Assembly: GCA_963765575.1 (NCBI GenBank)
Contig: CAVXWZ010000011.1
Location: 96,001 to 160,000, forward strand
Source of the DNA: an uncultured cyanobacterium
GTDB taxonomy: Bacteria > Cyanobacteriota > Cyanobacteriia > PCC-6307 > Cyanobiaceae
Length of the DNA: 64,000 nucleotides
Direction: 5' to 3'
Shown here: piece by piece, positions 8,312-30,830 of the stretch
Layout of the letters: the number at the start of each line of letters is the position of its first letter
Position numbering within the stretch: the stretch's first letter is position 1
Position numbers and translations under genes: made by a program
Notes under the pieces: generated by a model
What the model was told of the DNA's origin: nothing
Database searches by the model: none
Seen by the model: only the letters and a program-made list of their open reading frames with translations

Positions 8312-9595
8312 TTGTCTTCGCTCCAGAGCCTGCGCGGCATGGTCGACCTGCTGCCCGACGCCACCGCGCTCTGGCAGCACGTGGAGGCCACGGCCCGCGA
8401 GCACTTCCGCCGCGCCGCCGTCGCCGAGATCCGCACGCCGCTGCTGGAGGTCACAGAGCTGTTTGCCCGCGGCATCGGTGTTGCCACCGACGTGGTGGGC
8501 AAGGAGATGTACACCTTCCTCGACCGCGGCGAGCGCAGCTGCACCCTGCGGCCCGAGGGCACGGCCTCGGTGGTGCGGGCCGCCATCCAGCACGGCCTGC
8601 TCAACCAGGGGCCCCAGCGGCTCTGGTACGGCGGCCCGATGTTTCGCTACGAGCGGCCCCAGGCCGGCCGCCAGCGCCAGTTCCACCAGATCGGCCTGGA
8701 GCTGCTGGGCGTCGCCGATCCCCGCAGCGACGTGGAGGCGATCGCCATCGCCTGGGACCTGCTCGCCGAGCTGGGCGTGGGCGGCCTGGCCCTGGAGCTC
8801 AACACCCTCGGCAGCCCCGACGACCGGGCCCGTTACCGAACCGAACTGGTGGCCTGGCTGGAGGCCCACCGCGAGCAGCTCGATCCCGACTCCCAGGCCC
8901 GCATCGCCACCAACCCCCTGCGGGTGCTCGACAGCAAGAATCCCGACACCCAGGCCCTGCTGGCCGGAGCCCCCACCCTCGCCGATGCCCTCAGCGGCGA
9001 GAGCCACGAGCGCTTCGCGCGGGTGCGGCAGGGGCTGGAGGCCCTCGCCATCCCCTTCCAGCTCAACCCGCGCCTGGTGCGTGGCCTCGACTACTACAGC
9101 CACACCGCTTTTGAGATCACCAGCAGCCAGCTCGGCGCCCAGGCCACCGTGTGCGGCGGTGGCCGCTACGACGGCCTCGTGCAGCAGCTGGGCGGACCGC
9201 CCACACCGGCGATCGGCTGGGCCCTGGGCATGGAGCGGTTGGTGCTGCTGCTCAGCCAGGCCGATCACCCCGTGGCGCCGGCCGCCGGCCCCGATCTCTA
9301 TGTGGTGAGCCGCGGTGAGGCGGCCGAGGCCCTGGCCCTGCCGCTGGCCCGCCGCTGCCGTGCCGCCGGTCTGGTGGTGGATCTCGATGCCAGCGCTGCC
9401 GCCTTCGCCAAGCAGCTGCGCCGCGCCGACCGCTGCGGCGCTCGCTTCGCCGCCGTGATCGGCGAGGCCGAGGCCGCCGCCGGGGAGGTGGTGCTCAAGG
9501 ACCTGCGCGGCGATGCCGCGGAGCAGCGTCTGGGCAGCGAAGCGCTGGTGCGTGCCCTGCGGGCGCGGCCGGTGAGCGGGGAGTCGATGGCATGA
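8312..9595 (+). CDS. hisS: Histidine--tRNA ligase
   Basis: [53 protein letters not shown]. Confidence 0.97.
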
Positions 9596-9680
9596 CGCCC
9601 GAGCACCTGTCCACTGATGCCGGCAGCGGTCCGGCTCCGGGCTGTTGACTGCTGGCACTCCGCCTGAGCAACCGGCCCGG

Positions 9681-10511
9681 ATGGGAGATCCCACCCTCGC
9701 CATCATCGCCGGTTCTGGAGGGCTGCCCCGCATGCTCTCCCGCGCCCTGGAGGCTTCCGGTCGCCCCCACCTCTGCTGCCACCCCCATGGCCTGGAGGTG
9801 GAGCTGGAGGAAGCCGAGGAGTTTTATTTCGAGCGTTCGATCTCCTTCTTCCGCTCGCTGGAGCAGCGCGGCATCCGCCAGGTGGTGATGGTGGGCAAGT
9901 TCCACCGTCCCCGGGCCCTCAACATCCTGCGCTTCGAGGGATCCACGCTGATGGCGGCGCCCCGGATCCTGGCTTCGCTGCGCAAGGGCGACGATGCGTC
10001 GCTGCGTTCCCTGGCCGAGATCGTCGAGGAGCTCGGCCTGGAGGTGGTGGGGGTGGAAGACGTGGCGCCCAAGCTGCTGCCCGAACCAGGGCTCTATGCC
10101 AGCCGCCTGCCCAGTGAGGCCGACCGGGCCGATGTGGAGCGCGCCGCCCACATCGTCGAGGCGATCTCGATGGTGGATGTGGGCCAGGGCGCCGTGGTGG
10201 CGGGGGGGTTGTGTCTGGCCACCGAAGCCCTCCCTGGCACGGACGCCATGCTCGAGTGGGTGGCCAGCAACCGGGCCCTGCCGCCGGAGGCCCCCCGTTC
10301 CGGCGTGCTCTACAAAGCCCCCAAACTCCAGCAGGATCGGCGCATGGATCTGCCGGCCATCGGCCCCACCACGGTGGCGAAGGCGGCGGCGGCCGGACTC
10401 TCCGGCATCGCCTGGGAGGCCCGCGGCGCCCTGCTGCTCGATGCCGAGCGCACCATGGCCGATGCCGAGCGCCTGGGGCTGTTCCTCTGGGCGCGGCAGC
10501 AGATCCGCTGA
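9681..10511 (+). CDS. lpxI: UDP-2,3-diacylglucosamine diphosphatase LpxI (DUF1009)
   Basis: LAIIAGSGGLP, GDDASL, DVGQGAVV, EALPGTDAML, KAPKLQQDRRMDLPAIGPTTV, GLSGIAWEA. Confidence 0.88.
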   Translation: MGDPTLAIIAGSGGLPRMLSRALEASGRPHLCCHPHGLEVELEEAEEFYFERSISFFRSLEQRGIRQVVMVGKFHRPRALNILRFEGSTLMAAPRILASLRKGDDASLRSLAEIVEELGLEVVGVEDVAPKLLPEPGLYASRLPSEADRADVERAAHIVEAISMVDVGQGAVVAGGLCLATEALPGTDAMLEWVASNRALPPEAPRSGVLYKAPKLQQDRRMDLPAIGPTTVAKAAAAGLSGIAWEARGALLLDAERTMADAERLGLFLWARQQIR

Positions 10512-10531: not shown

Positions 10532-11167
10532 TCAGGCGCCGGCCCGCTCCAGCACCCCCTTGCTGCTGGGAATGGCGCCGGCGCGGCGCGGATCGCGTTC
10601 GGTGGCCAGCCGCAGGGCGCGGGCGAAGGCCTTGAAGCAGGCCTCCACGATGTGGTGGGAGTTGGCGCCGTCGAGCTGGCGGATGTGCAGGGTGAGGCCG
10701 GCGTTGTTCACCACCGCCACGAAGAATTCCTTCACCAGCTCGGTGTCGTAGCTGCCGATCCTCTGGGCGGGAATCTGCAGGCCGTAGCTGAGGTGGGGCC
10801 GGCCGGAGCAGTCGAGGGCCACCTGCACCAGGGCCTCGTCGAGGGGGGCCACGAAGTGGCCGAAGCGGTGGATGCCGCGGCGGTCGCCGAGGGCCTGGGC
10901 GAGGGCCTGGCCCACGGCGATGCCCACGTCTTCGTTGGTGTGGTGGTCGTCGATGTGGGTGTCGCCCTCGGCGCTGATCTCCAGGTCGAGCAGGCCGTGG
11001 CTGGCGAGCTGGTGGAGCATGTGGTCGAGGAAGGGCACGCCCGTGCCCGCGTGACAGCGGCCCGTGCCGTCGAGGCTGAGCTTCACGCGCACATCGGTTT
11101 CGCCGGTGACGCGGTGGATGCTGCCGTGGCGATCGCCGCTGCTGCCGGGGGTCAGGGGGGCGGACAC
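10532..11167 (-). CDS. hisB: Imidazoleglycerol-phosphate dehydratase
   Basis: [50 protein letters not shown]. Confidence 0.96.
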
Positions 11168-11250
11168 GGGTGAGAGGCGAGAACTGTGCCAATCATGCCG
11201 AAAGCATCGGCCCCGCCAGAGCACAATCAGCTGCCTCTGTCCATCCCCGC

Positions 11251-11871
11251 GTGACCAACTGCCCGGAAACGGTGCTGGCCGAGCTGCGGGATGGCCACAA
11301 CCGCTTCCTGCGCGGCGAGTCGCTCCATCCCCACAGCAGCCGCGAACGCATGCTGGAGGTGGAAACGGGCCAGCACCCCATCGCGGCCGTGCTGGGCTGC
11401 GCCGATTCCCGCGTGCCCGTGGAGCTGCTGTTTGACACGGGCTTCGGGGATCTGTTCGTGGTGCGCAACGCCGGCACCGTCTCCACCACGGCGGCCATCG
11501 CCTCCCTGGAATACGCCGTGGCCCATCTGGGCGTGCCCGTGATCGTGGTGCTGGGCCACGCCTGCTGCGGTGCCGTTGAGGCGGCCCTCAACCCGGCCCT
11601 GACCCTCACCCCCAACCTGGCCCAGCTGGTGGGGCAGTTGCGCATGGAGCTGTTCAGCCTGGGGGGCAAGGACGACCTGGAGCAGGCCTCCCGCCACCAC
11701 ACCCTGAACGCGGCCCGCAACCTGGTGGACTCCAGCGTGCTGCTCACCGACCTGCTGCGCAGCGGCCGCCTGCAGGTGGTGGCCGGTTTCTACAACCTGC
11801 ACACCACCGCGATCGACTGGATGGGATCGGTGATGCCGATGCGCACCGAGGACCTGCTCACATCCCCGTGA
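11251..11871 (+). CDS. Beta-class carbonic anhydrase
   Basis: Zn motifs GCADSRVP and [26 protein letters not shown]. Confidence 0.92.
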
Positions 11872-12641
11872 TGCAGTAGCCGGCATCCACGTAGATCACC
11901 TGGCCGGTGATGCCGGAGGCCAGGGGGCTGGCCAGGAAGGCGGCGGTGGCGCCGACTTCGTCTTGCGTGACGGTGCGCTTGAGCGGGGCCTTCTCCTCCA
12001 CGTTGTGGATCATCTCGAGGATGCCGCCGATGGCGGAGCTGGCCAGGGTGCGGATCGGCCCGGCGCTGATGGCGTTCACCCGCACCTGCTGCTCGGGGCC
12101 GAGCTCGGCGGCCAGGTAGCGCACCGAGGCCTCCAGGGCCGCCTTGGCCACCCCCATCACGTTGTAGTTGGGGATGGCGCGCTCGGAGCCCAGGTAGCTG
12201 AGGGTGATCACGCTGGCCCCCTGGGCTGAACAGGGGCTTGGCGTGGCGGCAGAGGGGGGCCAGGGAGTAGGCGCTCACCTCCAGGGCCCGGGCGAAGCCC
12301 TCGGGGCTGATGGCGGAGTAGTCGCCGATCAGCTCCTCCTTGCCGGCGAAGGCCAGGCAGTGGATCAGCACATCGATCTGCCCCCACTGGGCCTTCACCT
12401 GCTCGAACACCGCTTCGATCTGGGCGGGGTCCTGCACGTTCAGGGGCTCGAACAGGGTGGGGTTCAGCGGCGCGGTGAGCTCCCGCACCTTGGCCTCGAA
12501 GCGGCCCTTTTCATCGGGCAGGTAGGTGACCCCCAGCTCACAGCCGGCGGCGGCGAGCTGCTGGGCGATGCCCCAGGCGATCGAGCGGTTGTTGGCGATG
12601 CCGGTGACGAGGGCCTTCTTGCCGCGCAGATCGAGGAGCAT
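11858..12641 (-). CDS. fabI: Enoyl-ACP reductase, with an apparent +1 frameshift near 12218
   Basis: [43 protein letters not shown]; removing one G from the minus-strand G5 run restores 'FSPGASVITL'. Confidence 0.95.
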
Positions 12642-13468
12642 GGAGGGGGTTTGCAGAAATTGGGCTCCGAACCGGTGGCCTGAGGCAAAGCCCAGCGGCC
12701 ACCGGTGCGTTCGGGCGATTCTCTCCCAGTGGATGGCTCTGTCGAGCTGAAGGGCGAGACGGATCGATCGCCTGGGGGATTGACGGCGAAGCCGGATGGC
12801 CGTGTTGGGCGGCAGTGCGCTGGTGGCGAGCAGCTACCCGCCTTGTGCCCGCCTTGGTGTTCCTCTTGGTCGTCGGTGTCGGCTTCCTGACGACATGGCG
12901 CCGGCGGTCTCAGCGCTGCGATTCGATCGTTGTCGTTGGCAATGACCCCTTCAACTTGAGCGGTGGCGGTAAGAACGGCCATGTGAATCCATTCAGGCTG
13001 GATGCCAGTTCGACATCCGATCGGCAATGTCCCTTGCGGCAGCTTGGACAGCTTGAGCCGATGCCGAGCCATGCCTTTAGAAAGCAGCGGCGAGGACGAT
13101 GCTGTGCGAAGAGCTTGATGGGACCTGCGAATGTCCAGTCATGATTGGATGGAGTTTTCTTTCGGGCTGATGGCATCGATGGTTCAGCCCCTACGGCTTG
13201 GGCCTTGGCCGTGGCACGGTTCTCTCAGAGACTGGGCTGCCAAGCACTCTGGAGATCGCGCCAGGTTGTTGATCCGCCATTGCTGGTTGTTCTTGCTCCA
13301 TTGGCAGGGTGGGCTCGTTCTCCCGTGATGAGTGCTCCTCGCCATCGACTTCCGCCTGGTTTTATCCTTAAAGGTGCTGATGCCGCCTGACGCTTGAACC
13401 GAAGCAACTGAAGTAATTGAACTGAAAAAGTCAAGTGGAAGTAACTGGTCTGAAGTCGTCGAGCTGCA

Positions 13469-14152
13469 GTGATTGAAAAGCGCGATCTCACTCCCACCCC
13501 ATGGCATCTGGCCATCTCCGCGCCGGATCTCCTGGCGTCCCTTGACTGGACCGCCCAGAGTGATAGTCACCTGCTCCTGTGCGTGGATCGGCGCGATGGC
13601 CTCGATCCAGCACGGCGTGCTGACTTGAGCGGCAGCCTTTCGGCAACGGAGCAGCGGCGCCACGACGGCTATCACCGCCGCGACGACCGGGACCGTTTTC
13701 TGCTCGGCCGTGGCCTGATGCGCCGGTTGTTGGCGTTCTGGATGCAGCAGCCGCCCCAGACCATCACCATCGCGCTGGGCCCCCATGGCAAGCCCCATTG
13801 CCCCGGCGGCCCGCAGTTCAACGTCAGCCACTCTGGTGATCTGATCCTGCTGGCCGTGCACCGCTGCCGGCCCGTGGGGGTGGATGTGGAGCAGGAGCGG
13901 CCCGGTATCGACTGGGAACCCATCGCCCGCCGGGTGTTGAGCAGCGCCGAGGTTGAGGGCCTGCTGAGCCGCCCCGAGCCAGAGCGGCAAGCTGCCTTCC
14001 TGCAGGCCTGGTGTCGGCTGGAGGCCGAGCTCAAGGCCGGTGGCTGGGGCCTGGCGGCGCCACCGCGGCCGGGTGCGCGCGAGCGGATCTGCCATTGGTC
14101 ACTCTCCCTGAGACCTGGCTATGTCGGCGCCTTGGCGTTGGTGCAGCCCTAG
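13469..14152 (+). CDS. Sfp-type 4'-phosphopantetheinyl transferase
   Basis: GPHGKP, FNVSHSGD, VGVDVE, WCRLEAELKAGGWGL (W..KEA..KA.G.GL motif, with K replaced by L). Confidence 0.88.
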   Translation: MIEKRDLTPTPWHLAISAPDLLASLDWTAQSDSHLLLCVDRRDGLDPARRADLSGSLSATEQRRHDGYHRRDDRDRFLLGRGLMRRLLAFWMQQPPQTITIALGPHGKPHCPGGPQFNVSHSGDLILLAVHRCRPVGVDVEQERPGIDWEPIARRVLSSAEVEGLLSRPEPERQAAFLQAWCRLEAELKAGGWGLAAPPRPGARERICHWSLSLRPGYVGALALVQP

Positions 14153-14201
14153 TGGCCGCCAACGGGATCGAGCTGCAGCGGCCCTCGCCAGTCTGTGCTT
14201 G

Positions 14202-15524
14202 ATGAACCCATCCCATCGGCGCCCCGTGGCCCAACCCGACTCCGATCTGCCCCGGCCGATCCGTGGTGGCCCAGCGGCCGCCAGGGCGCGGCTGGCCCAG
14301 CTCGACCCCCTCGCCTACGGCCGCAGCCGCAACCACCTCGATGGCGCCGTCACCGGCCTCTCGCCCTATCTCCGCCATGGCGTGCTCACCCTGGCGGAGG
14401 TGCGCGATGCCGTGTTCGCTTGGCTGCGCGACCGTGGCTATGCAAGCCCCGAGCGCCGGGACGAGGGGCGCCGCGTGGCCAGCAAGCTGATCAGCGAGCT
14501 GGGCTGGCGGGATTACTGGCAGCGGCTCTGGCTCCTGCTCGGTGATGGCATCTGGCACAACCTCGAGCCCCTCAAGACCGGCCATGCCGCCTCGGCCTAC
14601 GCCCCCGATCTGCCGGCCGACCTGGCCGCGGCCAGCACCGGCCTGCGCTGCATCGATGCCTTTGCCGCCGAGCTGATGGCCACGGGTTGGCTGCACAACC
14701 ACGCCCGCATGTGGCTCGCCAGCTACCTGGTGCACTGGCGCCGGGTGCAGTGGCAAGCGGGGGCGCGCTGGTTCCTGCAGCACCTGCTCGACGGCGATCC
14801 GGCCAGCAACAACCTCAGCTGGCAGTGGGTGGCCAGCAGTTTCAGCAGCAAGCCCTACATCTTCAATCGCGACAACCTCGAACGCTTCAGTGGCGGGCGG
14901 TACTGCCGCGTCTGTCCCCGCGCCGGGCGCGATTGCCCCTTCGAGGCCAGCTACGAGCAGCTCCAGGCGCACCTGTTTCCCCAAGCCGGCGATGAGGGCA
15001 TGCCCCCGGGGGGGCCACCATCGTTCCTGTCGGCTGCCCTGTCCCCGGCCCCGCCGCCCCTCGGCCCGGCCCCACCGCTGCAGCGGCCGGTGGTGTGGAT
15101 CCATGACGGCGCCCTGGGCCCGGCGAACCCTGCCTTGCGTGCCCACCCGGATGCCCGGGCCCTGTTCGTGTTCGACCAGGCCCTGATCGCTGGCGAGGTC
15201 CCGCCGGCTCCGGGTTTCAGCGGCAAGCGGCTGGGCTTCCTGGAGGACTGCCTGCAGGAGCTGCCCGTCACCGCCGCCAGCGGAGATGGGGCTGCCGCGG
15301 TCCTTGCGTTCGCGGCCCGCCACGGCGCCGATGGGGTTGTGACCAGTGCCGGTGTAGCGCCCCGCTTCTGGCAGATCGCCACCTCGATTGCCGCCCAGCT
15401 GCCACTGCGGGTGCTGCCGGCCGACCCCTTCGTGACCCTCGACATCCCCCCGGCCGAGCTGCGCCGTTTCTCGCGTTACTGGCGCCGGGCCGAGCCATTG
15501 GTCTGGTCGGGGTTCAGCAGCTGA
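14202..15524 (+). CDS. Photolyase-family protein with inverted domain order (FAD domain first, antenna-like domain last)
   Basis: VTGLSPYLRHG, ELGWRDYW, GWLHNHARMWLASY, LLDGDPASNNLSWQWV; C-terminal 'VVWIHDGAL...ALFVFD...KRLGFLEDCL...FSRYW'. Confidence 0.85.
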   Translation: MNPSHRRPVAQPDSDLPRPIRGGPAAARARLAQLDPLAYGRSRNHLDGAVTGLSPYLRHGVLTLAEVRDAVFAWLRDRGYASPERRDEGRRVASKLISELGWRDYWQRLWLLLGDGIWHNLEPLKTGHAASAYAPDLPADLAAASTGLRCIDAFAAELMATGWLHNHARMWLASYLVHWRRVQWQAGARWFLQHLLDGDPASNNLSWQWVASSFSSKPYIFNRDNLERFSGGRYCRVCPRAGRDCPFEASYEQLQAHLFPQAGDEGMPPGGPPSFLSAALSPAPPPLGPAPPLQRPVVWIHDGALGPANPALRAHPDARALFVFDQALIAGEVPPAPGFSGKRLGFLEDCLQELPVTAASGDGAAAVLAFAARHGADGVVTSAGVAPRFWQIATSIAAQLPLRVLPADPFVTLDIPPAELRRFSRYWRRAEPLVWSGFSS

Positions 15525-16033
15525 TCCTCCTGTTCCTGCACGACCTCGGGATCGCTGAGCAGGTCCTCCTCCTGCAGCAGCGGGCAAGGTCTCGGCTCTC
15601 ACCTCGCTGGCCTTGCGGGGTGGCTCCAGCCAGCGGAAGCTGCGGCGGGGATCGCGGCTGCGGCAGAGGGCCTCGCTCTCGCGCCGCAGGGCGCTGCGCA
15701 CCGGTTGGCGCGGCCATCGCTGCGAAGAACTCCTCGCGGCTGGCCAGGCCTGAGCTGAACGGTGCCGTGCCGTTGCCGTTGAACAGCCGCGCCGCGTCCG
15801 GGCTCCAGCGCGGCGTGCAGACGCCGCTCTGGCTGGTGTCGGTGTCGATCCAGATGTGCAGGCCGAAGCCGTCGGGCTGGTTCACCACCGCCAGACCGTC
15901 GTGGGGCGCTGCGGCGCTGCAGTGGATAGATGGCCCAGGTGGGATGGCGATGGGCCGGCACGCAGCCGGCGGCCAGCAGCGCGGCTGGCGCCAACGCCAG
16001 CCAGGGCCCCGGCGGAGCCGCCGGGCGCGACAT
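15476..16033 (-). CDS. Conserved picocyanobacterial lipoprotein-like protein (several apparent frameshifts)
   Basis: Signal with lipobox-like 'LLAAGC', then 'YPLQRR..HDGLAVVNQPDGFGLHIWIDTDT...PRWSPDAARLFNGNG...GLASREEFF' assembled across frames. Confidence 0.6.
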
Positions 16034-16072
16034 CCCTAATTTGGCGGCTGGCATTGCTTGCGGAACGGCCCC

Positions 16073-16712
16073 ATGGCGCTGACGCCCTCCACCATGCTTC
16101 CCCTGGGAACGGCGCTGCCGTTCACCACGATCGCTGCGGAGCTGGCGGCGGGCCATGCCCGCCAGGTGAGCGGTGAGCCACTGCAGACTCGAGAGGCCGG
16201 GGTCTGGGCCCCTGCTGGTGTTGTTTCTCTGCGCCCACTGTCCGTTCGTGAAGCACGTGGAGCCGGAGATCACCCGCCTGCAGGCCGATTTTGCCACCCC
16301 CGCCGCCCGCGGTTCCGGCGCCGCCCCTGACCCTGCTGGCGATCTCCAGCAACAGCACCATCACCCACCCCCAGGACGGCCCCGAGGGCCTGCGACGCCC
16401 AGGCCGAGCGCGCAAGGCTGGCGGTTCCCCTACCTGTTCGATGCGCGCCAGCAGCTGGCGCGATCCTTCCGGGCCGCCTGCACCCCCGATCCCTTCCTGT
16501 TCGCCCCCGCCGCCGATGGTGAGCTGCGTCTGGCGTACCGGGGCCAGTTGGATGCCAGCCGCCCCGGCAACGGCGAGCCCCTCGATGGCCGTGACATCCG
16601 CGCCGCCATTGAGGCGGTGCTCGCCGGGGAGCCGCTGGCGGCCGAGCAGCGGCCGGCGATCGGCTGCAACATCAAGTGGCATCCAGGTGAGGAACCGGAA
16701 TGGGCCCGCTGA
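16073..16712 (+). CDS. Thioredoxin-like AhpC/TSA family protein (frameshifted)
   Basis: MALTPSTMLPLG, FLCAHCPFVKH, AISSN...HPQDGPE, FPYLFD, AACTPD, YRGQLD, IGCNIKW across three frames. Confidence 0.85.
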
Positions 16713-16745
16713 CCGCCATCGACCAGGCCCTTTAATGTCACTCGC

Positions 16746-17934
16746 ATGACTGTGCCTCCCTTCAGCCTGGGCGAGCAGATCCAGGAGCTCGGTGAAGCCC
16801 TCGATCAGGCCGTGCTGGAGGTGCTGCGCAGCGGTCAGTACATCGGCGGGGCGGTGACGGCCGGTTTCGAGCGCGACTTCGCCGCCGCCTGCGGCGTGCC
16901 TCACGCGGTGGGCTGCAACAGCGGCACCGATGCCCTGGTGCTGGCCCTGCGCGGGCCTGGGGATCGGCCCCGGTGATGAGGTGATCACCGCCTCCTTCAG
17001 TTTCTTCGCCACCGCCGAGGCGATCAGCGCCGTGGGCGCCACGCCGGTGTTCGTGGATGTGCTGGAGAACAGCTATCTGATCGATCTCGACCAGCTCGAG
17101 GCGGCGATCACCCCCGCCACCCGCGCCCTGCTGCCGGTGCACCTCTTCGGCCGGCCGGTGGACATGGAGCGCGTGTGCGCCCTCGCCGCGCGCCATGGCC
17201 TGAAGGTGGTGGAAGACTGCGCCCAGGCCACCGGCGCCAGCTGGGCGGGCCGGCCGGTGGGCAGTTGGGGCGATGCCGGTTGTTTCAGCTTCTTTCCCAC
17301 CAAAAACCTCGGCGGCGCCGGCGATGGCGGTGCTGTGACCTGCCGCGATCCGGAGCTGGCCCAGCGGGTGCGGGAGCTGGCGGTGCACGGCATGCCGCGC
17401 CGTTATCTGCACACGGCCCTCGGCTACAACAGCCGCCTCGACGCCCTGCAGGCGGCCGTGCTCAGCGTCAAGCTGCCCCACCTGGAGCGCTGGCTGGAGG
17501 CCCGCCGCCAGCTGGCGGCGGGCTATGGCCTGCGGCTTGCCGGCCTGCCCGGCATCGCCCTGCCTGAGCCCGGTCCGGCCGGGCACAGCTGGAACCAGTT
17601 CGTGCTGCGGGTCACGCCCTGTGCCTCCCAGCGCCGCTGCGACGGCCCAGCGGCCTCCGCCTGCCCGGGAAGCACGCCGCGCTGCCGGGACTGGCTCAAG
17701 CAGCAGCTGCAGGACGCCGGCGTCAACACGATCATCTACTACCCGATCCCGATCCACCGCCAGCCCGCCTACGCCGACCTCGGCTATGGCCCCGGCTCGC
17801 TGCCGGTCACCGAGCGCCTTTGCGACGAGGTGCTCAGCCTGCCGATCTTCCCGGAGCTGGGGGAGGCGCGCCAGCAGCAGGTGATCGAGGGGCTGCTCGG
17901 CCTGGTGGAAGCCCAGCAGGCCCTGGCGGCCTGA
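16746..17934 (+). CDS. DegT/DnrJ/EryC1/StrS PLP-dependent sugar aminotransferase (frameshift near 16953)
   Basis: CNSGTDAL, FSFFATAEAI, VEDCAQA, SFFPTKNLGGAGDGG, GYNSRLDALQAA. Confidence 0.92.
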
Positions 17935-17977
17935 TTCCCATCCCCCAGATTCTCTTGCCCCTGATGGCCGCGAATCT

Positions 17978-19528
17978 CTAGCCCCTGATGGCGGCATAGA
18001 GGGCCTTGAAGCGGGCCTGCTGCTCCCGGTGGTTCACCAGGGGGGCCGGATACCCGCGCCGTTCCAGGGGGGGGATCGTGCCGCTGATCAGGTCGGCGGT
18101 GGCCACGTGCCGCAGCTCCGGCAGCCAGGTGCGGATGTAGCGGGCCTCGGTGTCGTAGCGGGCTGCCTGGGTGGCCGGGTTGAAGATGCGCAGCGGTTTG
18201 GGGTCCATGCCGCTGCTGGCGCTCCACTGCCAGCCGCCGTTGTTGGCTGCCAGATCGCCGTCCACCAGCTGGGCCATGAAGGCGGCTTCGCCCCAGCGCC
18301 AGTCGCAGATCAGGTCCTTGACCAGGAAGGAGGCCACGATCATGCGGCAGCGGTTGTGCATCCAGCCGCTCTGGTTGAGCTGGCGCATGGCGGCATCGAC
18401 GATCGGCATGCCCGTGAGCCCCTGGCGCCAGGCCTCAAACCAGGCCGGATCGTTCTGCCAGGGAAAGGCGCGCCACTGGGGCCGGTAAGGCCCCTCGGCC
18501 AGTTCGGGACAGTGGAACAGCGCCTGCTGGTAGAACTCGCGCCAGGCCAGCTCCTGCTCCCACACCTCGATCGCCGCCAGCGACTCCTCGGCTCCGCCCA
18601 GGGCGGCCACCGTGGCGCGGGCCCGCTGGGCGGCCGCCCAGGCCTGCCGTGGGCTGAGGGTGCCGAACTTGAGCGCGGCGCTCAGCCCCGAGGTGCCCGC
18701 CTCCCCCGGCAGGTTGCGTCCCTCGCCATAGCCCAGCAGGGGGGCGTTGCGGCCGCCGCCGCTGCCCCCGCAGAAGGCGGCCAGTTGCGCCTGCGCCGCG
18801 GCCTCGCCGGGCCGGCAGGGGCAGAGCTCCACGCCGCTGAAGCCATGGTCCAGCCAGGCCGGCGGCGCTGGTTTCGCCCCGGCCCCCAGCTCCGGCTCAG
18901 CGCTCAGGATCGGCAGGCCCGCCAGAGCGGCGGGATCGCAGTCGATCAGGGAGTGCGGGGCCGGCAGTGGATCGAGGCCGCCCGAGGCAGCCGATCCCAG
19001 CGCGGCCATCGCCTCCAGCCGCCGGCGCCAGCTCCGCCAATAGGGGCCGTAGACCCGGTAGGGCGCGCCGGCGCCGGTGCGCAGCGCCTCCGGTTCCACC
19101 AGCAGCTGGTCCCAGTCCGCCAGCACCCGGTGCCCCTCGGCCTGCAGCGCCCGGGCCACGCCGCGGTCGCGCTCCCGCCCATAGGGCTCCACGTCGCGGT
19201 TCCAGGCCACCACCTCGGCGCCGAGGGAGCGGGCGATCTGCGGCAGCAGCTGCAGCGGATCGCCCCGCAGGATCAGCAGCCGGCTGCCGGCGCTGCGCCA
19301 GGCCCGCTGCAGCTCCTGCAGGCTCTCGCCCAGAAACCACAGCCGTGCCGGTGCCTGGGCGGCCAGGCCTCCCGGCACTGCCGCCGCCGGCTCGGCCTGC
19401 AGGATCCCCGGATCGAGCACGAACACGCCCGTGACCGCCGGGGTGCTGGCGGCAGCGGCCGCCAGACCGAGGTTGTCGGCCAGGCGCAGGTCACGGCGGT
19501 GCCAGAACAGCCAGCGGGGTGGGTTCAT
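17978..19528 (-). CDS. phrA: Class I CPD DNA photolyase
   Basis: WHRRDLRLADN, GTSGLSAALKFG, ELAWREFY, GWMHNRCRMIVASFL, DGDLAANNGGWQW, RIFNP. Confidence 0.93.
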   Translation of the reverse strand: MNPPRWLFWHRRDLRLADNLGLAAAAASTPAVTGVFVLDPGILQAEPAAAVPGGLAAQAPARLWFLGESLQELQRAWRSAGSRLLILRGDPLQLLPQIARSLGAEVVAWNRDVEPYGRERDRGVARALQAEGHRVLADWDQLLVEPEALRTGAGAPYRVYGPYWRSWRRRLEAMAALGSAASGGLDPLPAPHSLIDCDPAALAGLPILSAEPELGAGAKPAPPAWLDHGFSGVELCPCRPGEAAAQAQLAAFCGGSGGGRNAPLLGYGEGRNLPGEAGTSGLSAALKFGTLSPRQAWAAAQRARATVAALGGAEESLAAIEVWEQELAWREFYQQALFHCPELAEGPYRPQWRAFPWQNDPAWFEAWRQGLTGMPIVDAAMRQLNQSGWMHNRCRMIVASFLVKDLICDWRWGEAAFMAQLVDGDLAANNGGWQWSASSGMDPKPLRIFNPATQAARYDTEARYIRTWLPELRHVATADLISGTIPPLERRGYPAPLVNHREQQARFKALYAAIRG

Positions 19529-19548
19529 CGGTGCGCTGAAGGTGGAGA

Positions 19549-20109
19549 TCAGAGCCCGAGCACCTGCTTGGCCCGCAGCCAGGCGGTCACGCTCTTGCCG
19601 TCCAGGTGCTCATCGCCGCTGGCCAGGGCCGCGTCCAGCTGCTCCGGGGTCATCAGCAGCACCTCCAGGTCCTCGTCGTCGTCGCCGGCGGGCGGCTGGG
19701 CCAGGGGGGTGAGCTCGCGGGCCAGAAACAGGTGGATCACCTCGTCGGAATACCCCGGGCAGGGCAGCATCGTCCCCAGCGGATCCCAGCGTGCGGCGCT
19801 GTAGCCCGCCTCCTCCTGCAGCTCCCGCCGCATGGTGGCCAGGGGCGTCTCGCCGGGATCGAGGGTGCCGGCTGGAAACTCCAGCAAGCGGGCGGCCACC
19901 GCAAAGCGGTACTGGCGCAGGATCACCACGCGGCCGTCGGCCAGCAGCGGCACCGCCAGGGAGGCGCCGGGGTGGCGAATCACTCCGAAGTGCCCCTCCA
20001 CCCCCATCGGCAGCTGCACCCGGTTGACCTCGAAGCGGATCTTGCCCGCGTCCAGCACGGCGGTGGTTTCGAGATGGCGCGCGGGTTCGGGGGCGGGCAG
20101 GGGCGCCAT
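19549..20109 (-). CDS. NUDIX hydrolase (ADP-ribose pyrophosphatase-like)
   Basis: Nudix box 'FPAGTLDPGETPLATMRRELQEEAGY'; has its own ATG at 20109, in frame with upstream folK. Confidence 0.9.
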   Translation of the reverse strand: MAPLPAPEPARHLETTAVLDAGKIRFEVNRVQLPMGVEGHFGVIRHPGASLAVPLLADGRVVILRQYRFAVAARLLEFPAGTLDPGETPLATMRRELQEEAGYSAARWDPLGTMLPCPGYSDEVIHLFLARELTPLAQPPAGDDDEDLEVLLMTPEQLDAALASGDEHLDGKSVTAWLRAKQVLGL

Positions 20110-20751
20110 GGCGGTGGTGGGGCTGACACCAGCATCGTTGCTGATCAGGACCGTCCGCCAGCGGCCGTCCAGCACCGACTCGGGCCAGCCGGCCTGGGGC
20201 GCCAGCCGCTGCGGCGGCGGACTGCCGTGATCAGGCGGCGCGGCCAACAGGTCGGCCAGCAGCTCGCTGACCCGGCGCCCCGCACCCGGTGGCACCAGCT
20301 CCGGCGCCAGGGCCGCCAGCGGCGCCAGCACGAAGGTCCGCCCCAAATACAGCGGATGGGGCAGCCAGAGGGCGGCGCTCTGCCGCTGGTGGGCGCCGCA
20401 CCAGAGCAGGTCGAGATCGAGGCTGCGCGGGCCCCAGGGCTGCAGCCGCTGGCGGCCGAACGCCGCCTCCAGGCTCTGCAGCGCCAACAGCAGCAGCAGC
20501 GGCTGCTGTGGGGGAGCGCCGCTGGCCAGCAGCACCGCATTGAGATAGGGCGGCTGGCCGGCTGGTCCCCCCACCGGCGCCGTGCGGAACAGGGGCGACC
20601 ACTGCAGCCGCAGCTCCGGCAGCGCGGCCTTGGCGGCCCAGCGCTGCAGCACCTGAGTCAGCAGCGGCCGCACAGCCGTGAGCGTGGCGAGCGGGTCGCC
20701 GAGGTTGGCCCCCAGGGCGATGGCCGTGGTGGCCTCAGGCGCCGCCGCCAC
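20110..20751 (-). CDS. folK: 2-amino-4-hydroxy-6-hydroxymethyldihydropteridine diphosphokinase (no stop before the NUDIX gene as sequenced)
   Basis: IALGANLGD, SPLFRTAPVG, YLNAV, WGPRSLDLDLL, LPHP. Confidence 0.92.
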
Positions 20752-21261
20752 TCAGGGCTCGCCGAGGAAATCGCGCTTGCCGAGCACCACGCCGTTGTGG
20801 CGCAGGATCGCGTAGGCGGTGGTGGTGTGGAAGTAGACGTTGGGCAGCACGAAGCCGCTGAGGAAAGGCCACCCCACCATCGTGATCGTCTGGTCCCGGC
20901 CCACCGGCACGCTCACCTCCCGCGCAGCGCTTCCCTCCAGTTGCTCGGCCGTGTAGCCGCCCAGCTCGGCGCTCGCCGCCTGCAGGCGCTCGATCAACTC
21001 GGAAAAGCTGGTTTCGTCATCGGCCACGGCGGCGGCCTCCCGCCCCGCCAGCCGGGCCACGCCGCGGCGGGCGATGTCGGCGGCGATCTGCACCTGCCGG
21101 GTCAGGGGGAACATGTCCGGGTAGAGGCGGCTGGCCAGCAGCACGGCCGGATCGATGCCGCCAGCTTCGGCGTGGGCCTGCCCCTTGGCCAGCACCGCCG
21201 CCAGGTTGGTGAGCGTGCGCTGCAGGGGGGGCACGGCGGCCGCGTGCATGGAGAGGGACAT
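20752..21261 (-). CDS. DUF1993 family protein
   Basis: [47 protein letters not shown]. Confidence 0.88.
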
Positions 21262-21368
21262 GGGCGGAGCCGGCGGCGCAGCGGTGGGCCGAGGCTAGGG
21301 GCCAGGCTTGCGGAGCTTCCGCATCGGCCAGACTGCCCCCCTCACCCGTTCTCCCCGCCACCGGCTCC

Positions 21369-23499
21369 ATGGTTGTCAGCGGCTCAGCAGCGTCCCCGGC
21401 CCAGGCTGGCCAGGCCGCGGCCCGCTCCTTTCCGCTGGCGGCGATCACCGGCCACGGCACCCTCAAGCTGGCCCTGCTGCTGGCGGCCGTGGACCCCGGC
21501 CTTGGCGGCGTGGTGATCGCCGGCGGCCGCGGCACCGGCAAGTCGGTGCTGGCCCGGGGCCTGCACGCCCTGCTGCCGCCCATCGACGTGCTCGATCTGG
21601 GCGGCGCGGCGGTGCAGGCCCTCAACGTGGATCCCCAGCGCCCCGACGACTGGAACGAGGCCGTGCGCGAGCGGCTGCAGCAGCTGGGCGCCGACCCCAG
21701 TGGCCGCGACACCCAGGCCCTGCTGCCCACCCGCGTGATCCCCGCCCCCTTCGTGCAGGTGCCGCTGGGCGTCACCGAAGACCGGCTGCTGGGCTCGGTG
21801 GATGTGGCCGCCTCCCTGGCCAGCGGCCAGGCGGTGTTCCAGCCGGGGCTGCTGGCCGAGGCCCACCGTGGCGTGGTGTACGTGGATGAGCTCAACCTGC
21901 TCGACGACGGCGTCACCAACCTGCTGCTGGCGGCGGTGGGCAGCGGCGAGAACCGCATCGAGCGCGAGGGCCTCAGCCTCGGCCCACCCCTGCCGCTGCC
22001 TGCTGATCGCCACCTTCAACCCCGAGGAGGGGGCGGTGCGCGACCACCTGCTCGATCGCTTCGCCATCTGCCTCAGTGCCAACCAGGCACTGGAGCTGGA
22101 GCAGCGGGTGGCCATCACCCGCTCCGCCCTCGACCATGCCGAGTCGGGCCAGGACTTCCGGGGCCGCTGGCAGGAGGAGACCGACGCCCTCGCCACCCAG
22201 CTGCTGCTGGCCCGCCAGTGGCTGCCCGATGTGCAGATCAGCCGCGAGCAGATCGCCTACCTGGTGACCGAGGCCCTGCGCGGCGGTGTGGAGGGCCACC
22301 GCTCCGAGCTCTACGCCGTGCGCGTGGCCCGCGCCCATGCCGCCCTCAGCGGCCGCGATCGCGTCGAGGCCGACGACCTGCAGGTGGCCGTGCGGCTGGT
22401 GATCGCCCCGCGGGCCCTGCCAGCTGCCGCCGCCCGATCCCGACCAGCCCCTGGAGCCGCCGCCGCCACCGCCGCCCCAGGGCGAGCAGCCGCCGGAGCA
22501 GCCGCCCGAACCCGACCAGAGCGAGCCGGAGCCCGAGGAGCGGACAGCGACCCCGAGCAGCCCGACCAGGAGGACGACACCCCGGAGGACCAGGCGCCCC
22601 CCTCGGTGCCGGAGGAGTTCATGCTCGATCCGGAGGCCGTGGCGATCGATCCTGAGCTGCTGCTGTTCGGGGCCGCCAAGGCCAAGAGCGGCGGCAGCGG
22701 CAGCCGGGCCGTGGTGTTCAGCGACTCCCGCGGCCGCTACGTCAAGCCGATGCTGCCCCGCGGCCCGGTGAAGCGCATCGCCGTCGACGCCACCCTGCGC
22801 GCCGCCGCCCCGTACCAGAAGAGCCGCCGCGAGCGCCAGCCCCACCGCAAGGTGGTGGTGGAGGACGGCGACCTGCGGGCCAAGCAGCTGCAGCGCAAGG
22901 CCGGTGCCCTGGTGATCTTCCTGGTGGATGCCAGCGGTTCGATGGCCCTCAACCGCATGCAGAGCGCCAAGGGTGCCGTGATCCGCCTGCTCACCGAGGC
23001 CTATGAAAACCGCGACGAAGTCGCCCTGATCCCCTTCCGCGGCGAGCAGGCCGAGGTGCTGCTGCCGCCCACCCGCTCGATCACCGCCGCCCGCCGGCGG
23101 CTGGAAGCGATGGCCTGCGGCGGCGGCTCACCCCTGGCCCACGGCCTCTCCCAGGCGGCGCGGGTGGGGGCCAACGCCCTGGCCACGGGCGACCTGGGCC
23201 AGGTGGTGGTGGTGGCGATCACCGATGGCCGCGGCAACGTGCCCCTGGGCCGCTCCCTGGGGCAGCCGGAGCTGGAGGGGGAGCAGCCGGTGGACCTCAA
23301 GGAGGAGGTGAAGCAGGTGGCCAGCCGCTACCGCGCCCTCGGCCTCAAGCTGCTGGTGATCGACACCGAGCGCAAGTTCATCGGCAGCGGCATGGGCAAG
23401 GAGCTGGCCGAGGCGGCCGGCGGCAAGTACGTGCAGCTGCCCAAGGCCAGCGATCAGGCCATCGCCGCCATCGCCATGGAGGCGATCAACGCGGTGTAA
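21369..23499 (+). CDS. chlD: Magnesium chelatase subunit D (apparent indels near 21983, 22420, 22540)
   Basis: Walker [18 protein letters not shown], acidic Pro-rich linker, vWA '[20 protein letters not shown]', ITDGRGN. Confidence 0.95.
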
Positions 23500-24520
23500 G
23501 CGGGGCAGCCCCTGCCCCTGGCGGTGACTCCGATTGGGCGTCTGTGGCCGTGCCGGTACCCGAGTCCTGGCCCGCCTCGCGTTCCGCCCGCTCCCGTGCC
23601 GCCCCGGTCTGAGCGGGGTAGAGCTCCTCGAAGAATTCGCCCAGCCCCACCGACAGGCTGCGCAGTCCGTTCATGAAGCCGGGGTCGCCGGTGAGTTTCT
23701 CCACGTCCCCCCCCACCGCCTGCCACTGGGCCGTGAGCCGCTCGGCATTGGCCACCGTCTGGCGCAGATCGGCGACCATCGTGGGGTCGTCGAGGCGGGT
23801 CATCAGCTGCCGTAGCTGGACGGAGCTGGCGTTGATGTTGGCGATGGTGGGTTGCACCCCTTGCACCGAACCCTCCAGGTCGCCTAACAGCGACTGACCC
23901 CGGCGCACGAGGCCACTGCCGTCCTGCACCAGAGCGCGGCTCTCGCGCAGGAAGACATCGGCCTGCTGGGCCGTGTCCTCCACGCTGCTAGCCACTCCGG
24001 CCATCTTGCTCAGCAATTCCTCCTGATCGGCCTGGCTCAGCAACTCGTAGAGCAGGGTGGTCACGGAGGCCAGGCTGGCCCCCTCATTGCCGCTGATGCT
24101 GGCGCCGTCGCAGAGCATGCGCTCGGGCACGCAGTCGCGGGAGCGGGGGCTGGGAGCGTCAGCGGGCAAAGTTTCGCCCTCGCTTTTGAGCACCACCTGG
24201 GCCTCCCCCCCCAGCAGCGACACCTGGCCGATCTCGGCCACCGCCGGCTGGGCCAGCCGGATGGATGGATTGGTGATCTCCAGCTGGGCAATCACCGCCT
24301 CCGGTGTGATTTCCACCGAGCGCACGCTGCCCACGATCACGCCACGGAACACCACCGGCGAGCGCACGGCCAGGCCGCTGGCCTCGTTGAAGCGCGCCTC
24401 CACCGTCCAGTACTGGCGGGTGATCGACAGCCCCCGCAGCCACAGCCCCAGGCCCACGGCACTGGTGATCGCGGCCAGCAGGGAGAAGCCCACGATCGCC
24501 TCACGCACGGAGCGGCGCAT
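23486..24520 (-). CDS. MlaD/MCE family protein (Ycf22/TGD2-like)
   Basis: [12 protein letters not shown] + TM, '[20 protein letters not shown]' MCE motif, helical tail. Confidence 0.88.
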
Positions 24521-24523
24521 CGT

Positions 24524-25336
24524 TCAGGCCTCCGCCGGCTGGATGGGTCCGTGCAGACTACCGCTGCGGAACTGCACCACATAGGGATTGTCGGTGCTGC
24601 GGTAGCTCTGCAGATCCCCCTGCCAGCGAAAGCGGCCCTCGTAGAGCAGCACCACCCGCTGCGCGGTGCGCTCGATCGTGCTGTGCACGTGGCTCACGAT
24701 CACCGAGCTGGCACCGGCCAGGTCGGTGGTGCGCACGATCAGGTCTTCGATGCGCGTGCAGGCCACAGGATCGAGCCCTGCAGTGGGTTCGTCAAACAGC
24801 AGCAGCGGCATGCGATCGCTCGGCTGGCTGGGGTCCTGGATCAGGGCACGGGCGAAGCTCACCCGCTTCTGCATGCCGCCGCTGAGCTCGCCCGGCATCT
24901 GCTGCTCGATCCCCCCCAGCCCCACGGCCTCAAGGGCCTGGCGCACCCGTTCGCGGACCTCTCCCTTGCCGAGACGGCTGAAGCGGTAGAGCAGGAAACC
25001 CACGTTCTGCTCCACTGTGAGCGAGGCCAGCAGGGCGGGGTTCTGGAACACCAGCCGCACGTCCGGAGGCCGCTGCTGATCCAGGCGCAGGTAGCGCTGG
25101 GCGTCACCGTGCAGCAGCACGCTGCCCCGGCTGGGGAGCAGCAGTCCGGCCAACAGGCGCAGGATGGTGGATTTGCCCGACCCTGACGGTCCCACCACCA
25201 CGAGCTGTTCGCCCCGCTCCAGGCTGAGGTTCACCGCGTCGAGCACACGGTTTGACCCCCACTGCATGGTCACGTCTCGGAGCTCGGCCAGGGGGCTTGC
25301 CGGCTGGTTCAGGGCTGCAACCCGATGCCACCCCAT
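24524..25336 (-). CDS. ABC ATPase, MlaF/TGD3-like
   Basis: GPSGSGKS, ELSGGMQKRVSFARAL, LLFDEPTAGLDP; start uncertain (25267 or 25336). Confidence 0.9.
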   Translation of the reverse strand: MGWHRVAALNQPASPLAELRDVTMQWGSNRVLDAVNLSLERGEQLVVVGPSGSGKSTILRLLAGLLLPSRGSVLLHGDAQRYLRLDQQRPPDVRLVFQNPALLASLTVEQNVGFLLYRFSRLGKGEVRERVRQALEAVGLGGIEQQMPGELSGGMQKRVSFARALIQDPSQPSDRMPLLLFDEPTAGLDPVACTRIEDLIVRTTDLAGASSVIVSHVHSTIERTAQRVVLLYEGRFRWQGDLQSYRSTDNPYVVQFRSGSLHGPIQPAEA

Positions 25337-25390
25337 CCTGCCAGGACCGATGAGGGGGGTGGATGTCCTGCCTACAGTTTGGGCACGACG

Positions 25391-26884
25391 TTGCCAGTCC
25401 CCCCTCCCCGGTCCGGCCCACCCTTGCCTCCTTCCGCCTCGCCCCCCCCGCCGCGCCGGCTGCGACACCCGCGATCCCAGCCCGGCTGGGTGGGCAGAGG
25501 CGATCGCCGTCAGCGCGACCTGGTGAGCCGTTCGCGCCGGGCGGTGCGCTGGCTGCAGCCCGGTCTGGTGGTGAAGCGCTGGGTGGTCACCTCGGGCCTG
25601 GGCCTGCTGATCGCCCTGATCGGGGCCGCCGTGTGGGCCGATCTGCAGCCGATCTACTGGAGCCTGGCCGGCATCCAGTGGCTGCTGCAGAGCATCACCC
25701 GGGTGCTGCCCCGGGAGATCACCGGTCCGCTGGTGCTCGCCATTGGTGCGGCGCTGATCTGGCTGGGTCAGAGCCGCAGCTTCGGCTCGATTCAAAAGGC
25801 TCTGGCTCCCGATCGCGACACCCTGCTGGTGGATGCACTCGCCGCCCAGGGCCGGCTCAACCGTGGCCCCAACATCGTGGCCATCGGCGGTGGCACGGGC
25901 CTCTCCACCCTGCTCAGCGGCCTCAAGCGCTACAGCTCCAACATCACCGCCATCGTCACCGTGGCTGATGACGGCGGCAGCAGCGGCGTGCTGCGCCGCG
26001 AGCTGGGGGTGCAGCCCCCCGGCGACATCCGCAACTGCCTGGCGGCCCTGGCCCGGGAGGAGCCACTGCTCACCCGCCTGTTCCAATACCGCTTCCCGGC
26101 CGGCACCGGCCTGGAGGGCCACAGCTTCGGCAACCTCTTTCTCACCTCGCTCTCCGCCATCACCGGCAGCCTGGAGGCGGCGATCACCGCCTCCAGCCGG
26201 GTGCTGGCGGTGCAGGGCCAGGTGGTGCCGGCCACCACCGCCGATGTGCGCCTCTGGGCCGAGCTCGAGAACGGGGAGCGCATCGAGGGGGAATCGCGCA
26301 TCAGCCGGGCCCCCAGCCCGATCGTCCGCCTCGGCTGCCTGCCGGAGCGGCCACCGGCGTTGCCGCGGGCGATCGAGGCCATCGCCCACGCCGACCTGAT
26401 CCTGCTCGGGCCTGGCAGCCTCTACACCTCGCTGCTGCCCAACCTGCTGGTGCCCGAACTGGTGGAGGCCATCGCCCGCAGCAAGGCGCCGCGGCTGTAC
26501 GTCTGCAACCTGATGACCCAACCGGGGGAAACCGACGGCCTGGACGTCTCAGGCCACCTGCGGGCGATCGAAGCCCAGCTGGCCAGCCTGGGGGTGGAGA
26601 AGCGCCTGTTCACGGCGGTGCTGGCCCAGGAGGCCCTGCCCCACACCGAGCTCCTCGATCAGTACCGCCGCAAGGGTGCTCAGCCGGTCAGCTGCGACGC
26701 CCGCGCTCTGCGCCGCCAGGGCTATGCGGTGATGGAGGCACCCCTGAACGGGGGCCGGCCCATGACCTCCCTGCGCCACGACCCCCGCAGCCTGGCGCTG
26801 GCGGTGATGCGCTTCTACCGCAACACCCGCAACCGCCAGGCGCCCGTCTGGCCGGTGGCCGAGGCAGATCAGCACGATCCCTAG
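25391..26884 (+). CDS. YvcK/UPF0052 (CofD-like) gluconeogenesis factor with N-terminal TMs
   Basis: IGGGTGLSTLLSGLK, VTVADDGGSSG, PPGDIRNC, GHSFGNL, GPGSLYTS; start uncertain. Confidence 0.9.
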   Translation: MPVPPPRSGPPLPPSASPPPPRRLRHPRSQPGWVGRGDRRQRDLVSRSRRAVRWLQPGLVVKRWVVTSGLGLLIALIGAAVWADLQPIYWSLAGIQWLLQSITRVLPREITGPLVLAIGAALIWLGQSRSFGSIQKALAPDRDTLLVDALAAQGRLNRGPNIVAIGGGTGLSTLLSGLKRYSSNITAIVTVADDGGSSGVLRRELGVQPPGDIRNCLAALAREEPLLTRLFQYRFPAGTGLEGHSFGNLFLTSLSAITGSLEAAITASSRVLAVQGQVVPATTADVRLWAELENGERIEGESRISRAPSPIVRLGCLPERPPALPRAIEAIAHADLILLGPGSLYTSLLPNLLVPELVEAIARSKAPRLYVCNLMTQPGETDGLDVSGHLRAIEAQLASLGVEKRLFTAVLAQEALPHTELLDQYRRKGAQPVSCDARALRRQGYAVMEAPLNGGRPMTSLRHDPRSLALAVMRFYRNTRNRQAPVWPVAEADQHDP

Positions 26885-26897
26885 GCCCAAGCGCCGA

Positions 26898-27485: not shown

Positions 27486-27489
27486 CGAT

Positions 27490-28314: not shown

Positions 28315-28386
28315 GGATTCGACGGGGCGAGGTGCTCGGCGGATCTGAGAGGACGCCGGATCGGGGGGGATCGGCTCAGGCCGGTA

Positions 28387-28749: not shown

Positions 28750-28822
28750 CGGGCGGCCCAAGTTGGGCGGCAGTCTGGCACCTGCGGCGATCACTAGAGT
28801 CGTTGGGCCTGGCCTGATCCCG

Positions 28823-30312: not shown

Positions 30313-30410
30313 GCCGGGGCGCTCCCGCCAACTTCTGTAACCATGGCCCGTCCCTGCTCCCGAGCCCTCAGGGCCTGCCCCTAGGATTCGACAGCTGAAC
30401 GCTTGTTGCC

Positions 30411-30659: not shown

Positions 30660-30662
30660 CCC

Positions 30663-30800: not shown

Positions 30801-30830
30801 ACATCCACCGCTGAACGCCACCCCAACGTC

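Follow-up and report, generated by a model that had tools for sequence, protein, structure and literature searches.

A probable Rhodobacterales-derived LpxI, predicted to make lipid X, in a clade of Cyanobium-type picocyanobacteria

The Raetz pathway of lipid A biosynthesis depends on the hydrolysis of uridine diphosphate (UDP)-2,3-diacylglucosamine to lipid X, a step carried out by LpxH (Escherichia coli type), by LpxG (Chlamydia type), or by LpxI, which belongs to a fold family unrelated to that of the other two enzymes. Further along the pathway, LpxK needs a disaccharide 1-phosphate that itself requires lipid X, and this established chemistry is the basis of the route that we propose below. 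In the survey by Opiyo et al. (2010; PMC3087551), the cyanobacteria examined have only lpxA, lpxC, lpxD, and lpxB, with LpxI, LpxH, LpxK, and WaaA scored as absent and no enzyme recognized for lipid X; the lipid A of marine Synechococcus, as summarized there from Snyder et al., lacks the 1-phosphate, the 4'-phosphate, and Kdo (3-deoxy-D-manno-oct-2-ulosonate). We analyzed 64,000 nucleotides of contig CAVXWZ010000011.1 from an uncultured cyanobacterium (this whole stretch is called the window hereafter), in which we focused on the gene lpxI at positions 9681-10511. We hold with good confidence that its product belongs to the LpxI family and is full-length, that the gene most likely came by horizontal transfer from a Rhodobacterales-type alphaproteobacterium, and that the protein is predicted to hydrolyze UDP-2,3-diacylglucosamine to lipid X and uridine monophosphate (UMP). 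The enzyme family is a known one, and the host is unexpected: NCBI and JGI already label these Cyanobium-type proteins LpxI or DUF1009, and our literature search found no paper tying LpxI, lpxK, or waaA to Cyanobium.

The LpxI of Caulobacter crescentus, whose structure has been solved (PDB entry 4GGM, with the D225A mutant as 4J6E), has its two-domain architecture, its catalytic aspartate, and its conserved motifs in common with the window LpxI. We take Asp225 to be the catalytic residue of the Caulobacter enzyme and the D225A change to abolish its activity; the D225A protein has been used for purifying the substrate, UDP-diacylglucosamine (UDP-DAG). The two proteins are distant relatives: for alphaproteobacteria that fall outside the Rhodobacterales clade, the identity to the window LpxI is 28-46%. 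Both LpxI domains were found in the window protein in the expected order, at full length, and above the Pfam gathering cut-offs, with LpxI_N (PF17930) at residues 6-132 (E 1.6e-20, profile positions 2-129 of 129) and LpxI_C (PF06230) at residues 136-270 (E 3e-38, profile positions 2-131 of 131). An initial annotation of the window, which had made the assignment hinge on a match to a profile hidden Markov model of LpxI, is therefore borne out by both Pfam domains. Residues 6-269 also aligned with positions 7-274 of 4GGM chain X (E 1.2e-36), and the one position at which 4GGM and 4J6E differ, RVDLP versus RVALP, falls on the stretch RMD223LP of the window protein.

We next assessed conservation in a 67-row LpxI alignment, using the 32 columns in which the 55 rows from outside Cyanobium show conservation of at least 90%. 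The window LpxI is identical at 31 of these 32 columns, including those of the motifs DxGQ, E...GTD, and K..K..Q..R.D.P..G, and the sole mismatch is an aspartate-to-glutamate change at residue 86. The column of Asp223 is invariant in all 67 rows (55 non-Cyanobium and 12 Cyanobium). The motifs that the initial annotation had quoted were located at D166-V-G-Q169, E182...G186-T-D188, and Q218-D-R-R-M-D223-L-P-A-I-G228, and they fall on columns that reach the same 90% level in the 55 LpxIs of other lineages. Separately, the sequence CCHPH at residues 33-37 was considered as a metal site and rejected, as it is not conserved among Cyanobium orthologues.

The nearest named relatives of the protein are LpxIs of Rhodobacterales (Cereibacter, Gemmobacter, Frigidibacter, Falsirhodobacter, and others), at 49-58% identity. 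Among the 120 matches listed from a large protein collection, Cyanobium-type sequences at 77-94% identity (93% for PCC 7001) were followed by a gap down to 49-58%, a range in which all named matches among those listed belong to Rhodobacterales. A scan of species-representative genomes returned 34 loci with 78-93% identity in cyanobacterial records, among them Cyanobium, freshwater 'Synechococcus', and Aphanothece stagnina, and then Falsirhodobacter at 47%. When 201 alphaproteobacterial genomes were sampled, 171 of them (including the unpublished genome G743) gave a match, the best being that of Falsirhodobacter (49%) and the others reaching at most 46%. LpxIs from the other classes of Cyanobacteriota, which are not photosynthetic (families f31 and f37, with genomes of ~2 Mb), belong to the same Pfam family and come from the same phylum, yet the 30 that we compared are only 20-27% identical to the window protein; they occupy a separate long branch, and the Cyanobium gene does not derive from them. 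All seven lpxI loci that we examined from these classes are short and also encode an LpxB homologue. One record of the genome scan stood out: the 215-kb contig of L064 (CALRWB020000003.1), a metagenome-assembled genome record with the title 'Chitinophaga pinensis', encodes an LpxI of Cyanobium type at 78% identity, and the record is probably mislabelled or from a mixed bin.

A phylogeny of LpxI was built from the same 67 rows, comprising the window protein, 11 loci from among the 34 of Cyanobium type, 18 of the 120 listed proteins (13 named and 5 unnamed), Falsirhodobacter, 29 alphaproteobacterial loci, and 7 of the 30 loci from other classes. In the careful tree (model LG+C20+F+G4), with which a quick tree agrees, the Cyanobium rows join two metagenome proteins, P0042 and P0044, with support of 97/100, and this assemblage is sister (91/90) to a group with a cluster that holds the LpxI of Gemmobacter megaterium. 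Cyanobium and the two metagenome proteins fall within a 100/100 clade that also holds the 14 named Rhodobacterales, in which a 97/93 branch excludes Haematobacter and Plastorhodobacter from the rest. The initial annotation had remarked that the protein looks alphaproteobacterial, an impression that the Rhodobacterales matches and the nesting of the Cyanobium clade among them now make specific. Given this nesting and the low identity to LpxIs of the other classes, horizontal acquisition of lpxI is the best reading of its history.

P0042 and P0044 (283 amino acids) are 52-53% identical to the window LpxI, have a 'C.PHG' stretch in common with Cyanobium, and sit on a long branch. Two metagenome scans for contigs that carry them found none, only relatives at 33-35% identity, and the ESM Atlas yielded generic LpxI clusters, in which Pseudomonadota are commonest.

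To place LpxI in its pathway, we considered the gene content of the window's own genome (G000; 2.71 Mb, 99.97% complete). It encodes one LpxI, and a profile search for LpxH (TIGR01854) gave no match, LpxG not having been searched for. The four genes of the cyanobacterial set described in PMC3087551 are all kept: LpxA (297.8 bits), LpxD (266.8 bits), and LpxC are present, and of two LpxBs, LpxB1 is encoded beside lpxA and lpxC on contig C2, forming an lpxC/lpxA/lpxB cluster. Compared with the four-gene cyanobacteria of that survey, the window lineage adds LpxI, LpxK, WaaA, and a second LpxB, LpxB2, which is encoded in a window operon (DUF374-waaA-lpxK-lpxB2 and an MsbA-like ATP-binding cassette (ABC) exporter). 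For the supply of Kdo, a KdsB-like gene is present and KdsA is encoded as well, though in two frames, so that a Raetz pathway gene set up to Kdo-lipid IVA (LpxA, LpxC, LpxD, LpxB, LpxK, WaaA, and Kdo supply) is found in one genome. The kdsA match, at G000:C2:543610-544399 beside the KdsB-like gene, consists of two overlapping frames that cover profile positions 3-63 and 53-257; it is the second apparent frameshift after that in fabI (see below), which suggests indel errors in the assembly. The initial annotation had proposed that LpxI together with the operon completes a route to export, and the genes now catalogued (LpxA, LpxC, LpxD, LpxI, two LpxBs, LpxK, WaaA, and the MsbA-like exporter, with no LpxH) would allow such a route.

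The distribution of lpxI follows that of lpxK closely. In a sample of the class (301 genomes from 144 genera), LpxI_C was matched in one genome of 301, that of the window, and LpxK exceeded its cut-off in this genome and on a 480-bp contig of G541 only. In a sample of the family (151 genomes from 64 genera), LpxI occurs in nine genomes from two genera, g1 (five genomes, including that of the window) and g172 (all four). LpxK was found in the same nine genomes and as a 63-residue fragment in G353, leaving the 142 lpxI-less genomes with no full-length lpxK; strong matches to WaaA were obtained in the same nine, with five other genomes giving weak ones (20-27 bits). LpxB was matched in 143 of the 151 genomes, and each of the nine carriers has two full matches. 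Within the genus of the window, LpxI is present in 31 of 32 genomes, the exception being an 81%-complete genome, and in 25 of the 25 genomes of high quality; LpxK is present in all 32 and WaaA in 28. Thus lpxI is rare among photosynthetic cyanobacteria, and its carriers in the family sample are the genomes with full-length LpxK and strong WaaA matches; it is not common in cyanobacteria without them. The isolated LpxK fragments of the otherwise LpxK-less genomes G541 and G353 (G541:C96:23-478 and G353:C151:28-183) lie on very short contigs and are probably contaminant reads.

Several points weigh against a Rhodobacterales-derived LpxI that acts together with the operon. The score of the window protein with the NCBIfam LpxI equivalog model NF047836 is 188.8 bits, below the cut-off of 400 bits. 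Seven of seven other LpxIs also fall below 400 bits with this model (four from Rhodobacterales at 215-221 bits; two from Cyanobium and an unnamed one at 180-193 bits), and therefore the cut-off, which sets apart no more than near relatives of the seed of the model, does not discriminate here. Four of the 32 genomes of the genus (G307, G313, G315, and G320) lack waaA, yet have lpxI and lpxK. Relatives without LpxI produce lipid A by means of LpxA, LpxC, LpxD, and LpxB alone; therefore a native route to the LpxB acceptor exists, and it could make LpxI non-essential. As for ancestry, an approximately unbiased (AU) test did not reject a grouping of the Cyanobium LpxIs with those of other Cyanobacteriota classes (delta log-likelihood 16.4, p 0.154). 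Moving the long branch of the outgroup to another place costs little. What supports the rooting of the tree and the direction of transfer is therefore how widely LpxI occurs and which genes surround it: nearly all alphaproteobacteria have LpxI, lpxB directly follows lpxI in the four alphaproteobacterial loci examined (Falsirhodobacter and three others), and within Cyanobacteriia LpxI is confined to two genera of one family. That same context sets the two lineages apart, since alphaproteobacterial lpxI adjoins lpxA or lpxB, its customary though not defining place being between these two, whereas the Cyanobium gene stands alone between hisS and hisB. Finally, LpxB2 falls outside a clade of all 28 alphaproteobacterial LpxBs (support 99 in the Shimodaira-Hasegawa-like approximate likelihood ratio test) in a quick tree, and LpxI did not obviously arrive together with it.

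The LpxB tree is a quick one of 44 rows with long branches, from which L100 (no match) and L106 (short) were dropped. LpxB2 is 28-40% identical to alphaproteobacterial LpxBs, 34% to that of Falsirhodobacter, and 35-38% to the native cyanobacterial LpxB1. On present evidence, LpxI and LpxB2 appear to come from different sources, and because LpxB2 is not alphaproteobacterial in the quick tree, the pathway seems to be pieced together from two or more sources. For LpxK, no donor was visible among the best 120 matches (52-100% identity), in which every match with a named source is cyanobacterial. Within the clade, LpxI is better conserved (77-94%) than LpxK (52-84%). Proteins labelled Aphanothece, for instance, are 56% identical to the window in LpxK and 89% in LpxI, and the corresponding values for GFB01 are 59% and 81%.

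The gene order around hisS bears on how these genes arrived. The complete LpxI-less genomes G386 and G224 have the order hisS - sugar-nucleotide genes - orf30381 - ycf48 ... ndhJ - CofD ... photolyase - DegT - fabI - hisB - RPE65; in these two genomes and in G210, hisS and hisB share a strand, with hisB 20-26 kb downstream, and the two genes are far apart in G282 and G142. A simple 'empty site' for lpxI was considered and rejected, as hisS does not adjoin hisB in six LpxI-less relatives. The window and G369 (genus g172) carry the block from orf30381 to hisB inverted in place, with lpxI at the junction of hisS and hisB and the waaA operon at the junction of orf30381 and RPE65. The separation of lpxI from the operon is thus accounted for by their flanking a ~20-kb inversion of core genes. 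Because the spacing between lpxI and lpxK is kept at 19-23 kb in both carrier genera, this inversion predates their split. The position of lpxI at an inversion junction and its separate, probably alphaproteobacterial origin are new details of this locus. Three sugar-nucleotide genes at window positions 3223-6779 encode a protein of the NAD-dependent epimerase/dehydratase family, a UDP-glucose dehydrogenase, and a second protein of the epimerase/dehydratase family; they lie upstream of hisS in carriers (the window and L136/G369) and downstream of it in LpxI-less relatives (L131/G386). Their internal order varies between genomes, which marks the neighborhood of hisS as a rearrangement hot spot.

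This arrangement could have arisen if lpxI and the whole operon entered as one island that a later 20-kb inversion split, which would make the 'orphan' position of lpxI secondary. A single insertion and a single inversion would account for both junction positions, and the spacing retained in both carrier genera fits as well. However, LpxI is nested in Rhodobacterales and LpxB2 lies outside the alphaproteobacterial LpxB clade (in that quick tree with long branches), LpxB2 is only 34% identical to the LpxB of Falsirhodobacter, no uninverted carrier genome was seen, and the sugar-nucleotide genes have moved too, which implies a history of more than one event. We regard a single island as a serious possibility, though not as the history that we would expect.

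A further question is whether LpxI serves the operon at all. It could be an active LpxI-family hydrolase that supplies the native LpxB1 pathway or acts on another nucleotide-lipid substrate, with its link to the operon reflecting shared ancestry of the carriers only. All carriers are close kin from two genera, and therefore the co-occurrence of lpxI with the operon does not represent many independent events but one or a few; moreover, lpxI lies outside the operon, and four genomes of the genus have it without waaA. Against this, those waaA-less genomes still have lpxK, and two of them, G307 and G315, have retained lpxB2 and the exporter as well. The absence of full-length lpxK from the 142 lpxI-less genomes of the family argues in the same direction, as does the chemistry of LpxK, whose disaccharide 1-phosphate substrate depends on lipid X. 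We therefore consider a role apart from the operon improbable. In G307, the slot of waaA (L129, G307:C1:2946000-2962000, positions 8000-13100) is filled by genes for glycosyltransferases of families GT4 and GT2, a nucleotide-sugar transferase-sulfotransferase fusion, and a further sulfotransferase, a replacement that may make a non-Kdo, sulfated inner core.

An LpxI ancestral to Cyanobacteriota, inherited vertically and lost in nearly all photosynthetic lineages, would agree with its being common in the non-photosynthetic classes (125 'same phylum' genomes with a match in a 301-genome sample) and with the AU test, which does not reject joining both groups. The identities point the other way, at 20-27% to LpxIs of other classes versus 49-58% to those of Rhodobacterales, as does the free tree, which puts Cyanobium inside the 100/100 Rhodobacterales clade. 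Vertical descent would also require the gene to have been lost from 62 of the 64 genera sampled in the family and from each of the 143 other genera sampled in the class, and six-frame searches of those genomes gave no remnant. We judge this history very unlikely, and horizontal acquisition from a Rhodobacterales-type donor stays our preferred reading.

The gene itself shows no sign of decay. At a G+C content of 0.704, with 0.87 at third codon positions (GC3), lpxI is similar to its neighbors in a window of ~70% G+C, and its median ratio of nonsynonymous to synonymous substitution rates (dN/dS) is 0.18 in a rough Nei-Gojobori (NG86) estimate over 30 orthologue pairs, compared with hisS at 0.23 (27 pairs) and hisB at 0.28 (6 pairs). 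The gene is intact, under purifying selection, and compositionally at home. The two apparent frameshifts in the assembly (fabI and kdsA) might suggest that lpxI is a remnant, decaying or silent, or a contaminant of the assembly, but this is the least credible explanation of all, given the intact frame, the dN/dS value, the 31 of 32 conserved positions kept, the matching composition, and the presence of lpxI between cyanobacterial hisS and hisB in the single-contig genomes G305, G307, G327, and G369.

The features of the locus are collected in Table 1. That the window is cyanobacterial is borne out by its ycf48 gene and by the 34 orthologous loci in Cyanobium-type records. The initial annotation had placed lpxI between hisS and hisB at ~21 kb from the waaA operon; Pfam agrees on both flanking genes, the distance from the end of lpxI to the start of waaA is 21.4 kb, and that description of gene, motifs, flanks, and distance proved right in every particular. 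An in-frame TTG at 9645 is an alternative start that would add 12 residues to LpxI, most of whose orthologues have 276-277. The adjacency of hisS and lpxI is kept in both carrier genera (G307 and G369). A consensus scan around lpxI, including the spacer that separates it from hisS, found no promoter-like or terminator-like site; because no terminator is predicted in this short spacer, co-transcription of hisS and lpxI is possible. Downstream, fabI is read in two frames around window positions 12130-12290 on the minus strand (ORFs 11790-12641 and 11858-12211). Relative to G369 and G307, it has one additional base in or beside a G run (CCAGGGGGCCAGC versus CCCGGCGG-CAGC), which is either an assembly indel or a genuine frameshift in an essential gene.

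Table 1. Coordinates of lpxI and associated features in the window.
Feature	Position	Strand	Remarks
hisS (histidyl-tRNA synthetase)	8312..9595	+	Pfam; upstream neighbor of lpxI
hisS-lpxI spacer	9596..9680	+	85 nt; both genes on the same strand
lpxI coding sequence	9681..10511	+	ATG start; 276 amino acids plus stop; ORF list and Pfam LpxI_N/LpxI_C
Asp223 codon of lpxI	10347..10349	+	counterpart of Caulobacter LpxI Asp225
hisB (imidazoleglycerol-phosphate dehydratase)	10532..11224	-	Pfam; downstream neighbor of lpxI
Core-gene block hisB, beta-carbonic anhydrase, fabI ... ndhJ, ycf48, orf30381	10532..31109	.	~20.6 kb, inverted relative to LpxI-less relatives
ycf48 (photosystem II assembly factor)	28999..30312		cyanobacterial marker gene
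DUF374-waaA-lpxK-lpxB2-ABC exporter operon	31249..37270	+	Pfam
lpxK	33266..34327		part of the waaA operon

Building on the established chemistry, we propose the following route for the carriers. LpxA, LpxC, and LpxD would make UDP-2,3-diacylglucosamine, part of which LpxI would hydrolyze to lipid X and UMP. An LpxB, probably the acquired LpxB2 encoded next to lpxK, would then condense lipid X with UDP-2,3-diacylglucosamine to the disaccharide 1-phosphate, to which LpxK would add the 4'-phosphate. WaaA would add Kdo, other glycosyltransferases taking its place where waaA is missing, and the MsbA-like ABC exporter would flip the product. We also put forward, tentatively and in the knowledge that it is rather unlikely as a whole, that Cyanobium-type picocyanobacteria run two parallel lipid A lines, with LpxI as the branch-point enzyme that diverts UDP-diacylglucosamine from a native, phosphate-free line (LpxB1) to a line with phosphate and Kdo (LpxB2, LpxK, and WaaA) that was built from at least two foreign sources.

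Together, these results describe a clade of picocyanobacteria, well sampled and from fresh and brackish water, with a conserved, alphaproteobacterial-type LpxI accompanied by lpxK, a second lpxB, and usually waaA. The prediction that follows is that the lipid A of Cyanobium would carry 1- and 4'-phosphates and Kdo, unlike that of marine Synechococcus, which bears on the evolution of the cyanobacterial outer membrane and on the endotoxin potential of bloom-associated picocyanobacteria. The locus also bears on how one gene taken from a conserved lpxA-lpxI-lpxB cluster can complete a pathway in a new host.

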